Shown here: positions 58,959 to 62,016 of the stretch, piece by piece | Numbering within the stretch: position 1 is the stretch's first letter | How the letters are laid out: every line of letters begins with the position of its first letter | Assembly: GCF_003790525.1 (NCBI RefSeq) | Contig: NZ_CP033635.1 | Length of the DNA: 64,000 nucleotides | DNA from: Escherichia coli | GTDB lineage: Bacteria > Pseudomonadota > Gammaproteobacteria > Enterobacterales > Enterobacteriaceae | Strand: one strand, 5' to 3' | The notes under the pieces: generated by a model | What the model saw: only the letters and a program-made list of their open reading frames with translations | Databases searched by the model: none | Told to the model about the DNA's origin: nothing | Position numbers and translations under genes: made by a program

Positions 58959-59045
58959 TGCGACGCTGACGCGTCTTATCATGCCTACAAAATATGCCCG
59001 AATCGTAGGCCAGATAAGGCGCTTGCGCCGCATCCGGCATATAGC
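58959..59045. repeat. REP-like palindromic element at the left edge of the ybbJ-cueR insert
   Basis: GATGCGACGCTGACGCGTCTTATCATGCCTAC ... GTAGGCCAGATAAGGCGCTTGCGCCGCATCCGGCAT, a REP inverted pair. Confidence 0.75.
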
Positions 59046-59060
59046 CGAGTAGAGGCAAAA

Positions 59061-59423
59061 TTACTCTTCCCGGCCTTTACCCATACTTTTTTGGTCTTCA
59101 TCCGGATAGTGTTTTTTTAGATATTCCAGGACGTTTTTATTGACCTTGTGTTGGGTATACACCCACCCTTTCCAGTAATCAGGTTGGTCCAGGTAAACTT
59201 CTGGCGGAATGGTGAAATCAGAAAGCGTTAACCATTCGGCTAACAGATCGGGGTTTCGTTTCTGGATCAACTGCAACAGCATGATCAGCGACATGGCAGA
59301 GGCAGGAGCCGTACTATCGCCGCTTAAATACTTCCACACTGTCGACCGGTTCGAACGAAAAAGGATCGGTAGCAATGCCCGGTCCAGATTCATTTCATTA
59401 AAAATCTTCTCAAATTCATTCAT
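59061..59423 (-). CDS. Hypothetical 120-aa cytoplasmic protein, possible small DNA-binding regulator
   Basis: ORF with AGGAAA Shine-Dalgarno 6 nt upstream of the ATG; no signal peptide; segment RSNRSTVWKYLSG resembles the recognition helix of small phage-type HTH proteins; transcribed divergently from the adjacent 338-aa gene. I do not recognise the protein. Confidence 0.5.
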   Translation of the reverse strand: MNEFEKIFNEMNLDRALLPILFRSNRSTVWKYLSGDSTAPASAMSLIMLLQLIQKRNPDLLAEWLTLSDFTIPPEVYLDQPDYWKGWVYTQHKVNKNVLEYLKKHYPDEDQKSMGKGREE

Positions 59424-59788
59424 TTAAATTTCCTGCCTGGCGTAAACCTCTTAAAAATTGAGATTTATCAAAGAAACGCATTTTAGCACACATCAGGAAC
59501 CGCTTCACGTTTAGTCCAGAAACAGAATTTATTTCGCTTATCAAAACAAGTCTTTACTCTTTTTTACATTGAAAGAGCACGAAATAATTTCCTTTTTTAT
59601 TTATATAAGAAACTATTTTTGTTCCTTATTGGTGGTGTTTACGCTTACACAAGACAAAAATGCGCTTTACATCACACAAATGGCGGCGTAGATTTCGATC
59701 AAATTGCAACGCAGTTTATTTCTTAAAACAATATTATTTGTTTCTTATAGAAACATTAATGCGACTTATTTTGAACAAGAGAAAATGA

Positions 59789-60805
59789 ATGAAAACTGTA
59801 AACGTAGCTTTACTGGCACTCATAATTTCAGCAATATCCAGCCCTGTTGTTTTAGCTGGTGATACCATTGAAGCGGCGGCAACAGAGCTTTCAGCCATTA
59901 ACTCTGGCATGTCGCAATCGGAGATTGAGCAGAAGATTACCCGCTTTTTAGAACGCACAGACAACAGCCCCGCTGCGTATACCTATTTGACTGAACATCA
60001 CTACATCCCTTCTGAAACACCTGATACCACTCAGACTCCCACTGTCCAGACAGATCCTGACGCAGGACAAAAAACCGTTGCCGCTACAGGTGATGTACAG
60101 ACAACCGCCCGTTATCAGAGCATGATCAACGCCCGACAGTCTGCGGTAACTGATGCCCAGCAAACGCAAATTACAGAGCAACAGGCGCAGATCGTAGCCA
60201 CACAAAAAACGCTCGCCGCGACTGGAGATACGCAAAATACCGCGCATTATCAGGAGATGATTAATGCCAGACTGGCGGCTCAAAATGAGGCTAATCAGCG
60301 CACTACCACGGAACAAGGGCAGAAAATGAATGCACTGACAACCGATGTGGCAGCACAACAGCAAAAAGAAAGGGCTCAATACGATAAACAAATGCAAAGT
60401 CTGGCGCAGAAGTCTGTCCAGGCACATGAGCAAATTGAAAGTCTGAGACAAGATTCCGCACAAACGCAGCAACAGTTAACCAACACGCAAAAACGGGTCG
60501 CAGATAACAGCCAACAAATTAACACGCTCAATAACCATTTCGATTCTCTGAAAAACGAAGTTGAGGACAATCGTAAAGAAGCCAATGCGGGAACTGCATC
60601 TGCCATTGCTATCGCCTCACAACCACAGGTGAAAACCGGTGACGTGATGATGGTGTCAGCGGGAGCGGGAACGTTCAACGGTGAATCTGCGGTGTCTGTA
60701 GGAACATCTTTTAATGCCGGAACGCATACGGTACTTAAAGCAGGTATTTCTGCGGATACACAATCTGATTTCGGTGCGGGTGTCGGCGTGGGATATTCGT
60801 TCTAA
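59789..60805 (+). CDS. Small trimeric-autotransporter-like protein: signal peptide, Gln-rich coiled-coil stalk with two internal repeats, YadA-like C-terminal membrane anchor
   Basis: 338-aa ORF: N-terminal MKTVNVALLALIISAISSPVVLA-GD signal peptide; repeats QKTVAATGDVQTTARYQSMINAR and QKTLAATGDTQNTAHYQEMINAR; heptad-like stalk; C-terminus ANAGTASAIAIASQPQ...GAGVGVGYSF matches the four-strand YadA anchor pattern ending in an aromatic residue. Confidence 0.75.
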   Translation: MKTVNVALLALIISAISSPVVLAGDTIEAAATELSAINSGMSQSEIEQKITRFLERTDNSPAAYTYLTEHHYIPSETPDTTQTPTVQTDPDAGQKTVAATGDVQTTARYQSMINARQSAVTDAQQTQITEQQAQIVATQKTLAATGDTQNTAHYQEMINARLAAQNEANQRTTTEQGQKMNALTTDVAAQQQKERAQYDKQMQSLAQKSVQAHEQIESLRQDSAQTQQQLTNTQKRVADNSQQINTLNNHFDSLKNEVEDNRKEANAGTASAIAIASQPQVKTGDVMMVSAGAGTFNGESAVSVGTSFNAGTHTVLKAGISADTQSDFGAGVGVGYSF

Positions 60806-60858
60806 TTTTAACAGCAATTTCTTATTCGCAATTTTCCGCACATTATTTAAGGTTAACA

Positions 60859-61281
60859 ATGATGAATAGCTCCATTAAATCGTTTTCCCTGCTGGCGGTT
60901 ATATTACTGGCTGGCTGTAGTTCACCCACTTCCCGCATCGCAGATTGCCAGGCGCAGGGCGTCAGCCATGACACCTGTTATCTCGCAGAACAGCAGCGTC
61001 AGACGGCTATTTTAAGTGCATCCGAGGCGCAGGCATTTAAAAATGCAGAAGCCGCACAACATGCCCAGGCGGCAAAGAAAGCCATTTATAAAGGATTTGG
61101 CATGACCTTTAGAATGAGCAGTAAGAACTTTGCTTATCTCAATGATTCATTATGTGCAATTGATGAAGACAATAAAGATGCCACTGTTTATCAGTCAGGT
61201 CTTTATAACGTCATTGTTTATCACCACACGGGAAAAGTCGCCTTAATGAAGGAAGGTCAGTTTGTGGGTTATTTAAAATGA
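60859..61281 (+). CDS. Hypothetical lipoprotein (140 aa)
   Basis: Signal peptide with lipobox LLAG-C (Cys20), three further Cys; AAGG ribosome-binding site upstream; 53 bp downstream of the autotransporter-like gene. Confidence 0.6.
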   Translation: MMNSSIKSFSLLAVILLAGCSSPTSRIADCQAQGVSHDTCYLAEQQRQTAILSASEAQAFKNAEAAQHAQAAKKAIYKGFGMTFRMSSKNFAYLNDSLCAIDEDNKDATVYQSGLYNVIVYHHTGKVALMKEGQFVGYLK

Positions 61282-61481
61282 AGGAGCAAAGGAAAATCCC
61301 CCTGACGCATATTATGATTATCGGTGCGTTTATTTTTGCCTTCTTGCAAGTGGTGTTATTAGCCTCCCTGGTTCACGCTGTGAATGTTAACAACGAAATC
61401 CAGGAAGGCTTATTTCAGTCGGGGCGCATTATGGTAGAAAGTTTGCAGCATATTCTTTCGGTGCAAACGGGGATTAACTGA
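61278..61481 (+). CDS. Hypothetical small single-pass membrane protein (67 aa)
   Basis: ATG overlaps the lipoprotein stop (ATGA), with AAGGAG inside the upstream gene; one hydrophobic helix IMIIGAFIFAFLQVVLLASLV. Confidence 0.45.
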   Translation: MKEQRKIPLTHIMIIGAFIFAFLQVVLLASLVHAVNVNNEIQEGLFQSGRIMVESLQHILSVQTGIN

Positions 61482-61484
61482 TTT

Positions 61485-61892
61485 TCACCCCGCCCGATGA
61501 TGACAGCAGCCGGAGAGATTTTCGATAATCGGGCAGTCGGCGCTGTCATCACCGGGGCAGGCATTCGCCAGCGCCAGTAGCTGGTTGCGCATGGATTGCA
61601 GTTCTTCGATATGCCGTTCGATCTCCGCTACCTTCTCCAACGTACGACGTTTGACGTCGGCACTGTGACGCTGCGGATCGTTAAACAGATTCACCAGCTC
61701 GCCGCTCTCTTCCAGGTTAAAGCCCACCTGGCGTGCCTGCCGCAGTAAGGTCAGTTCGTTGAGATGCTGCTGCGTGTAGGTTCGATAACCATTTTCGCTG
61801 CGCATCGGCGGCGTCACCAGCCCCTTCTCTTCATAGAAGCGGATTGCTTTGCTGGTCAGGCCGGTAATTTTTGCTACATCGCTAATGTTCAT
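61485..61892 (-). CDS. cueR: CueR, MerR-family copper-responsive regulator
   Basis: 135-aa [28 protein letters not shown] with C-terminal metal-binding Cys pair ([10 protein letters not shown]). Confidence 0.92.
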
Positions 61893-62016
61893 CGTTCGCG
61901 CAACGCCTCCTGTGCTTTGTTAAAGGGTTTCAACAAATATTCAAGCACGTTTTTTTGCCAGTGCGAATATCGACCGCCACCACAATAATACAGGAAGTAC
62001 TGCGCACAGAGAGGTG

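Follow-up and report, generated by a model that had tools for sequence, protein, structure and literature searches.

A lipoprotein and a small membrane protein as candidate accessory factors of a headless trimeric autotransporter in O-island 29 of Escherichia coli

The analyzed window is a 64,000-nucleotide (nt) stretch of Escherichia coli DNA (RefSeq assembly GCF_003790525.1, contig NZ_CP033635.1) and matches the chromosome of strain SMS-3-5 at 100% identity. Near its right end, four open reading frames (ORFs) are located between the stops of ybbJ (58958) and of the minus-strand gene cueR (61485), and this study concerns the last two of them, encoding a lipoprotein of 140 amino acids (aa) and a 67-aa membrane protein. 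The whole module (58959..61484) corresponds to O-island 29 of O157:H7. This assignment is based on a published study of the genes z0640, z0639 (named gmrA), and z0638 in O157:H7 EDL933 (PMC5826968) and on mapping of the primers from that study onto the Sakai sequence. The first ORF, on the minus strand (59061..59423, z0640/ECs_0549), encodes a 120-aa helix-turn-helix (HTH)-like protein and is divergent from the second one, which encodes a 338-aa short, headless trimeric autotransporter (TAA) on the plus strand (59789..60805, z0639/ECs_0548, GmrA). The lipoprotein gene (60859..61281, plus strand, z0638/ECs_0546, WP_001339231.1) starts 53 nt 3′ of the TAA stop codon on the same strand and overlaps the gene for the 67-aa bitopic membrane protein (61278..61481, plus strand, WP_000664216.1). 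The latter ends 3 nt short of the cueR stop codon (61485-61487, minus strand). According to the primer mapping, the published deletions of z0638 and z0639 correspond exactly to the lipoprotein ORF and the 338-aa ORF, respectively, and z0640 is the 120-aa ORF. The z0638 deletion also takes out the ATG of the small ORF.

The original prediction, made from the DNA sequence, described a lipoprotein with an LLAGC lipobox and four cysteines, and this description was confirmed for the ORF at 60859-61281. The N-terminus of the protein contains Lys7 in the n-region, a hydrophobic core, and the lipobox Leu-Leu-Ala-Gly-Cys ending at Cys20; by sequence, the signal peptide with the lipobox occupies aa 1-20 (nt 60859-60918, plus strand). 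The segment MMNSSIKSFSLLAVILLAG-C20 matches the lipobox pattern [LVI][ASTVI][GAS]C, and the four cysteines are found at positions 20, 30, 40, and 99. In an alignment of 19 family sequences, Cys20 is invariant and Leu17 is nearly so. By this canonical lipobox match, the 140-aa product is a predicted substrate of signal peptidase II and is expected to be lipidated. Residue +2 is Ser, and in all 19 aligned relatives this position is occupied by Ser, Thr, or Val and never by Asp. Since residue +2 is not Asp, outer-membrane sorting is predicted by the +2 rule, and the lipoprotein should go to the outer membrane.

Downstream of the signal peptide, two modules were delimited from the alignment and the AlphaFold model. 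The first one (aa 21-72, herein referred to as the N-module) follows the lipobox with the pattern SRMA-x-C-x-AQG-[IV]-S-x-D-T-C-Y-L-A-E-Q-N-R-Q. It is modeled as a helical hairpin with two nearly invariant Cys residues ten residues apart, continued by a long Ala/Gln-rich helix, and in this model the hairpin would be capable of forming a Cys30-Cys40 disulfide. The second one (aa 73-140, the C-module or barrel module) is modeled as an eight-stranded β-barrel, with a predicted local distance difference test (pLDDT) score of 87-94 over residues 80-140. Tyr111, Gly114, and Tyr121 are invariant in this module, and Gly125-Lys126 are nearly so.

The lipoprotein belongs to a small Enterobacterales family that is new to domain databases and has no Pfam or NCBIfam model. 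A Pfam search gave no match even at E ≤ 10, an NCBIfam search gave only sub-threshold matches confined to the lipobox and Cys region, and no relative was found by a sequence search of the Protein Data Bank (PDB). A word-indexed search returned 55 relatives, every named one of them enterobacterial, and at E ≤ 1e-3 an exhaustive profile search of 1.84 billion representatives returned no more than 149 clusters. Large proteins that matched the profile more than once were rejected; as checked for P0192 and P0193, they are unrelated repeat proteins sharing only a short motif of the type ATCYSEGSYDSVIYC. At the level of fold, Foldseek found nothing in PDB below E 1e-3. In AFDB50, the matches at E ≤ 1e-3 were uncharacterized proteins, and the named ones were all enterobacterial; most are labeled "Lipoprotein" or "Uncharacterized protein", and a few bear the names of other families, for example DUF2845, RcnB, or DUF1471.

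The ATG of the small ORF (61278-61280) overlaps the TGA of the lipoprotein gene (61279-61281), forming an ATGA overlap (61278..61281, plus strand). This overlap, the single transmembrane (TM) segment of the 67-aa product, and the 3-nt distance to the cueR stop had all been described beforehand and were confirmed from the sequence. The protein has a basic N-terminus (Lys2, Arg5, Lys6) with about 11 residues predicted to be cytoplasmic, a single hydrophobic span at about aa 12-34 (nt 61311-61379), and an acidic amphipathic tail of 30 residues. It is predicted to be a bitopic inner-membrane protein with a cytoplasmic N-terminus, a topology that follows from the positive-inside rule, and with a 30-aa periplasmic helix. 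No family match for this protein was found in any of the searched libraries, including PHROGs and PADLOC.

Both ORFs are annotated by RefSeq in SMS-3-5; in the Sakai record, the small ORF is unannotated though intact. The pairwise ratio of nonsynonymous to synonymous substitutions (dN/dS), computed against the orthologs from E. coli O157, Escherichia whittamii, and Pseudocitrobacter, is 0.03-0.04 for the lipoprotein ORF and 0.09-0.24 for the small ORF. Judging by these ratios, both are real genes under purifying selection. About 1400 E. coli genomes contain both ORFs in intact form, at 95-100% identity. The small ORF is known only in Escherichia, Pseudocitrobacter, and the metagenomic lineage L042 and is missing from most lipoprotein loci. 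The 4-nt overlap is kept in all five distinct loci that contain it (E. coli, E. whittamii, two Pseudocitrobacter, and L042), and down to about 40% aa identity the overlap is retained together with the TM segment and the periplasmic motif LVHA-x-N…Q…FQS…E…Q.

The AAGGAG motif that had been placed upstream of the small ORF is in fact found at 61281-61286, directly after the ATG, where it forms codons 2-3. Lying 3′ of this ATG and 27 nt before the next in-frame one (Met13), it serves neither start and was rejected as a Shine-Dalgarno sequence. The nearest upstream purine-rich stretch, AAGGAAGG (61249-61256), ends 21 nt 5′ of the ATG, and only a weak GTGGG is located at about -10. Because of the overlap and the weak upstream sequence, coupling by termination-reinitiation is favored over an independent Shine-Dalgarno sequence. 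Thus, the arrangement suggests that the start of the small ORF is translationally coupled to the lipoprotein gene.

In the 338-aa ORF, a Sec signal peptide (aa 1-23) precedes a coiled-coil passenger, which is followed by a YadA anchor (Pfam: PF03895, YadA_anchor, residues 279-338, E 2.6e-11). The combination of a C-terminal YadA-type anchor with an N-terminal signal peptide, the latter read from the sequence, identifies it as a trimeric autotransporter. Only the anchor domain is present, with no YadA head. In RefSeq, the product is named "YadA family autotransporter adhesin", and an earlier paper lists it as a Saa-like adhesin. In E. coli VCSW7, an open frame of about 846 aa with the same anchor is found at the same site (locus L036, 1456-3996), of which only the last 349 aa are annotated. 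The TAA passenger varies widely among strains, and the downstream lipoprotein and small ORF stay constant.

In O157:H7 EDL933, the same protein was described as a DNA-binding transcriptional activator of fliA (PMC5826968). According to that study, deletion of z0639 affected motility and deletion of z0638 or z0640 did not, and the whole-island deletion was complemented by z0639 alone. The island deletion lowered the expression of fliA and fliC and left adherence to HeLa or Caco-2 cells unchanged. All the O-island 29 genes were reported to be co-downregulated upon contact with host cells. The literature search found nothing further published on z0638. Direct promoter binding by GmrA is hard to reconcile with the sequence, because the ORF encodes a secreted, YadA-anchored autotransporter. 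The motility phenotype of the z0639 deletion may instead be an indirect envelope effect.

Linkage of the lipoprotein and the TAA was analyzed with profile scans of all fetched loci, covering the YadA anchor, both lipoprotein modules, and the small and HTH-like proteins. In total, 28 independent loci contained the barrel module and enough upstream DNA to be judged. A YadA-anchor ORF was found directly upstream, on the same strand, in 17 of them: E. coli, E. whittamii, two Pseudocitrobacter, three Enterobacter, one Enterobacteriaceae metagenome-assembled genome, Phytobacter massiliensis, Rahnella rivi, Yersinia aleksiciae, Pantoea conspicua, and five metagenomic lineages. The gap between the two genes is usually 50-160 nt, reaching 1.9 kb in P. 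conspicua, and the linked TAAs have passengers of about 250 to over 700 residues. The pair occupies at least seven genomic contexts, namely the ybbJ-cueR interval, a position upstream of qmcA, sites beside wrbA-yccJ (with a recombinase) and beside thiM-thiD, a Rep3 plasmid-like contig, a position upstream of an mscK-like gene, and an Enterobacter plasmid. An HTH-like gene is divergent from the TAA gene in Escherichia, Pseudocitrobacter, Rahnella, Yersinia, and L042.

Among 5426 complete genomes of E. coli, the lipoprotein and small ORF were found in 1416 and the TAA anchor in 1382. Both the pair and the anchor are chromosomal and near single-copy (one place per genome in the median, two at most). 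Co-occurrence, the analysis of which had been suggested beforehand, is therefore nearly one to one within E. coli but does not extend to the whole family, as 11 of the 28 independent loci contain the lipoprotein without a TAA.

Some loci contain the two lipoprotein modules as separate genes. In three of them (L040, L041, and L044), the TAA gene is followed by an N-module lipoprotein of 72-96 aa and then by a separate barrel gene, whose product has its own signal peptide in L040 and L041. A similar split arrangement, with two overlapping reading frames, was found in L046. This alternation of fused and split forms argues that the lipoprotein modules work together. Anchors of at most 40% identity, found on plasmids of Burkholderia, Klebsiella, Enterobacter, and E. 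coli and in 33 phage genomes, have no accompanying lipoprotein. On a plasmid of Enterobacter sp. 638, a 58.6%-identical anchor is followed by an N-module about 360 nt downstream. Since the distant anchors lack the lipoprotein and the 58.6%-identical one has the N-module, the association is specific to one TAA clade. The lipoprotein is thus linked to one clade of short headless TAAs, non-randomly but not obligately.

The favored reading of these data, to which a probability of roughly 0.45 is assigned, is that the lipoprotein, with the small protein, is a new accessory module specific to this TAA clade. The four genes make up a conserved envelope module comprising the divergent HTH-like gene, the short headless TAA, the lipoprotein, and the small membrane protein. 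The lipoprotein would be sorted by the Lol system to the periplasmic face of the outer membrane, where it could bind or stabilize the trimeric anchor at its periplasmic face or, prior to export, the passenger. Its work could consist in stabilization, assembly, or anchoring. The translationally coupled inner-membrane partner would supply a periplasmic helix in fixed stoichiometry and form a complex with the lipoprotein. Such an accessory is probably an enhancer or stabilizer rather than an essential factor. Besides the linkage and its clade specificity, the purifying selection on both ORFs, the conserved ATGA overlap, and the reported co-downregulation of the island genes speak for this reading. 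Precedents are provided by SadB and TpgA, both TAA-specific accessory proteins, the tpgA gene also being located downstream of its TAA gene. It is a more ambitious proposition, and a rather doubtful one, that the module represents a third, hitherto unrecognized class of dedicated TAA accessory after SadB and TpgA. Short headless TAAs would then be stabilized, or helped to assemble, by a complex spanning the periplasm, formed by a two-module outer-membrane lipoprotein and, in Escherichia and related genera, its very small inner-membrane partner.

Several observations weigh against an accessory role. In 11 of the 28 loci, the lipoprotein or the barrel occurs alone, with no TAA within about 6 kb. 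These solitary loci belong to Klebsiella grimontii, K. aerogenes, Raoultella, Pluralibacter, Erwinia, Serratia, Phytobacter diazotrophicus, one Citrobacter chromosome, a Citrobacter plasmid set, a Chimaeribacter plasmid, and one Enterobacter contig. A tblastn search for degraded TAA remnants upstream of the solitary lipoproteins found none in the 11 loci. The short lipoproteins consisting of the N-module only, found in Buttiauxella, Atlantibacter, Aeromonas, and Pseudomonas, are usually solitary as well. In a mirror-tree analysis, anchor and barrel correlate modestly (Pearson 0.56, Spearman 0.24), a result uninformative on physical contact. Contact between the lipoprotein and the TAA is putative, and the membrane localization is predicted from the +2 rule. 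In addition, deletion of z0638 had no effect on motility, z0639 alone complemented the island deletion, and the unchanged adherence to HeLa and Caco-2 cells upon island deletion points the same way (PMC5826968). Thus, the earlier proposal of a helper for the adjacent autotransporter is strengthened by the linkage in 17 of 28 loci and at least seven contexts but weakened by a z0638 deletion without the z0639 phenotype and by a linkage that is not obligate. Independent occurrence of the genes, which had been named as an observation that would speak against a helper, was found in part, in the 11 loci with neither a TAA nor a remnant of one.

The same solitary loci can be explained if the lipoprotein is an autonomous envelope protein, the barrel of which binds or inhibits something unrelated to the TAA, and if the adjacency of the two genes reflects shared ancestry of the cluster. 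Examples would be a hydrolase inhibitor, like MliC, PliC, ACP, or PhiA, or a binder of small ligands of the avidin or lipocalin-like barrel type. Among these, MliC is likewise a lipoprotein, and the predicted eight-stranded β-barrel of the C-module corresponds to the fold of the MliC/PliC lysozyme inhibitors. In contrast to MliC, PliC, ACP, and PhiA, the O-island 29 lipoprotein has no detectable sequence relationship to these proteins and a different gene context. It was not matched by the Pfam MliC family even at E ≤ 10, which excludes sequence membership in MliC/PliC, and the Foldseek comparison with PDB was empty below E 1e-3. The failure of the z0638 deletion to phenocopy the TAA deletion fits an autonomous role; this role leaves unexplained why the TAA-lipoprotein pair moved together into at least seven contexts and why the split versions kept their position behind the TAA. 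On balance, autonomy is considered the main alternative, if a rather unlikely one.

Two further explanations are less probable still. An envelope-sensing or regulatory module, loosely similar to RcsF-IgaA, would signal the condition of the TAA or of the envelope to the HTH-like protein or to flagellar regulation. The HTH-like gene is conserved beside the module and, in Serratia silvae, adjoins a solitary lipoprotein without a TAA; an outer-membrane lipoprotein with an inner-membrane protein has the architecture of a trans-envelope relay; and fliA and fliC expression is lowered in the island deletion (PMC5826968). The motility phenotype, however, maps to z0639 alone, with no effect of the z0638 and z0640 deletions, and the small protein, with only some 11 residues in the cytoplasm, lacks a signaling domain and is missing from most loci, which together make a sensing role improbable. 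The possibility that the small ORF is untranslated and the lipoprotein is a decaying island passenger with no current role is very slight. In its favor, the z0638 deletion has no reported phenotype, the Sakai record does not annotate the small ORF, and frameshifted lipoprotein copies were found in two Citrobacter genomes. Decay is contradicted by dN/dS values well under 1 for both ORFs, by the frame, TM segment, and ATGA overlap that the small ORF keeps at about 40-50% aa identity, and by the intact state of both ORFs in about 1400 E. coli genomes at 95-100% identity.

An accessory role specific to one TAA clade would make the lipoprotein similar to SadB and TpgA in concept, with homology to neither. 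SadB (STM3690) is a Salmonella lipoprotein that assists the TAA SadA in an enhancing, non-essential way (PMC3953254). Both sadB and the O-island 29 gene encode a small lipoprotein of Enterobacterales and are separated from the neighboring TAA gene by a short spacer, as if in an operon, and just as SadB has the solitary paralog YajI, the O-island 29 family has solitary members. The differences are more specific. SadB has Asp at position +2 and is retained in the inner membrane (PMC3953254), whereas the O-island 29 lipoprotein has Ser. SadB consists of a trimeric coiled coil and a YajI/MATH-like domain, whereas the lipoprotein consists of the Cys-Cys hairpin and the eight-stranded barrel. The sadB gene is located upstream of sadA, whereas the lipoprotein gene is located 53 nt downstream of its TAA, and SadB has no coupled small membrane protein. 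Neither SadB nor YajI is present in any sequence or fold match list of the lipoprotein (PDB, AFDB50). On the grounds of the +2 residue, the gene order, the different fold, and the missing sequence or fold match, a relation of this gene to SadB was rejected.

In Acinetobacter sp. Tol 5, the TAA AtaA has TpgA as its periplasmic partner, for which a site of action on the periplasmic side of the anchor is proposed. Like the lipoprotein gene, tpgA is located directly downstream of a TAA gene. Homologs of TpgA share a BamE-like domain, accompanied in some by an OmpA-type peptidoglycan-binding domain (2026 TAA survey), whereas the lipoprotein contains a small barrel, and TpgA-like domains were rejected for it in the Pfam search at E ≤ 10. 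In the 2026 global survey, SadB and TpgA were the only described TAA helpers, and no further candidates were found. That survey analyzed only TAAs with both a YadA anchor and a YadA head domain. The present lipoprotein family would escape it because its TAA has the anchor only.

Other database leads were rejected. In its N-terminal region, TraV (TIGR02747) resembles the lipoprotein, with two conserved Cys residues in a short segment after the lipobox, and lipoprotein residues 7-66 align with profile positions 4-64 at 19.5 bits against a cut-off of 44.75. The rest of TraV is absent, and the neighbors are ybbJ, cueR, the TAA gene, and the HTH-like gene. An identity with TraV, or a role in conjugation, was therefore rejected, the match being a sub-threshold one to the lipobox and Cys residues with no tra genes nearby. 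One public source labels a homolog of the lipoprotein as TraV. The NCBIfam lead "XAC1346 family secretion chaperone" (E 0.0017, 18.9 bits against a cut-off of 120; no paper found) was not retained. A phage or defense origin was likewise rejected, neither the lipoprotein nor the small protein having a PHROGs or PADLOC match, and a tblastn search against 50,697 phage records gave no match.

The insertion site was compared among strains. In K-12-like, island-free strains, the stop codons of ybbJ and cueR abut with 0 nt between them (L038, 1200-1201). In another strain, an unrelated 407-aa gene is present at this junction (L037, 1678-2901), and SMS-3-5 and O157 carry the TAA-lipoprotein module there. 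Selection for a compact insert, which had been invoked for the tight packing against cueR, is unnecessary, because the 3-nt gap merely reproduces the native geometry of abutting stops. The last seven or so codons of ybbJ differ between island-bearing and island-free strains.

The neighborhood recurs outside Escherichia, where the module lies between ybbJ and cueR. It is found directly upstream of qmcA-ybbJ(-cueR) in Pseudocitrobacter sp. (L006, 6895-8683), S. silvae (L015, 6907-8620), and L042 (5736-7513), and near qmcA in L046 (4058-4462). Because the adjacency to qmcA-ybbJ-cueR is shared by several genera, the module appears to be an old neighbor rather than a randomly landed foreign insert. 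Ancestral synteny is suggested by this recurrence, and a functional tie to the SPFH/NfeD pair is a more tentative explanation. In Pseudocitrobacter faecalis, a single lipoprotein and small-ORF pair lies behind two YadA-anchor genes in tandem, of 633 and 608 aa (L003, 801-4532). Mobility of the module is suggested as a possibility by a serine recombinase gene about 1.5 kb downstream in this genome.

The association described here stands as a solid comparative-genomic lead. If the accessory role is true, the lipoproteins would be a third, unrelated family of dedicated periplasmic partners, tied to headless TAAs, and such partners would be recurrent in type Vc secretion. The module would also provide a small, tractable E. 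coli system for studying how TAA accessories work. It is present in about one quarter of E. coli genomes, including O157:H7 and strains classed as extra-intestinal pathogens by the cited papers. For the O-island 29 protein GmrA, the sequence points to the outer-membrane autotransporter of the module, and its motility phenotype may need an envelope-based explanation.

Additional features were found around these genes. The HTH-like protein has a sole, weak Pfam match, to the MqsA HTH region (E 0.12). A sigma-70-like promoter match, supported by consensus at 9 of 12 positions, is located 5′ of the TAA gene (59666..59694, plus strand). At the 3′ end of the TAA ORF, a weak terminator-like hairpin of 9 pairs, 3 of them G-C, is located at 60776..60800 (plus strand), followed by the 53-nt spacer. 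This hairpin could attenuate transcription ahead of the lipoprotein gene. The interval between the small ORF and cueR contains no terminator; for each of the two convergent transcripts, the closest terminator-like hairpin (61043-61057, minus strand; 61849-61867, plus strand) is located inside the opposite gene. Because of this missing terminator, transcripts of the module and of cueR may overlap as antisense RNAs.

At the left edge of the module, right after ybbJ, the segment 58919-59075 has the appearance of a repeat of the repetitive extragenic palindrome/bacterial interspersed mosaic element (REP/BIME) type, a reading based on the sequence and on copies elsewhere, with a median of 6 places per genome. 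An Rfam scan gave only sub-threshold naRNA4 matches, on both strands, at this putative REP element. In the 33 phage genomes mentioned above, protein C-termini are 34-42% identical to the YadA-type anchor region; these proteins are annotated as tail protein, receptor-binding protein, or adhesin and belong, among others, to phages of Escherichia, Salmonella, Pantoea, Yersinia, and Erwinia. On the far side of cueR, a frameshifted gene remnant is located at about 61889-61986, just past the cueR start, with a 4-nt overlap between this start and the stop of the remnant. O157:H7 is among the strains that encode, on the same side of cueR, a lapB-like ABC transporter together with an intact HlyD-family type I secretion adaptor.

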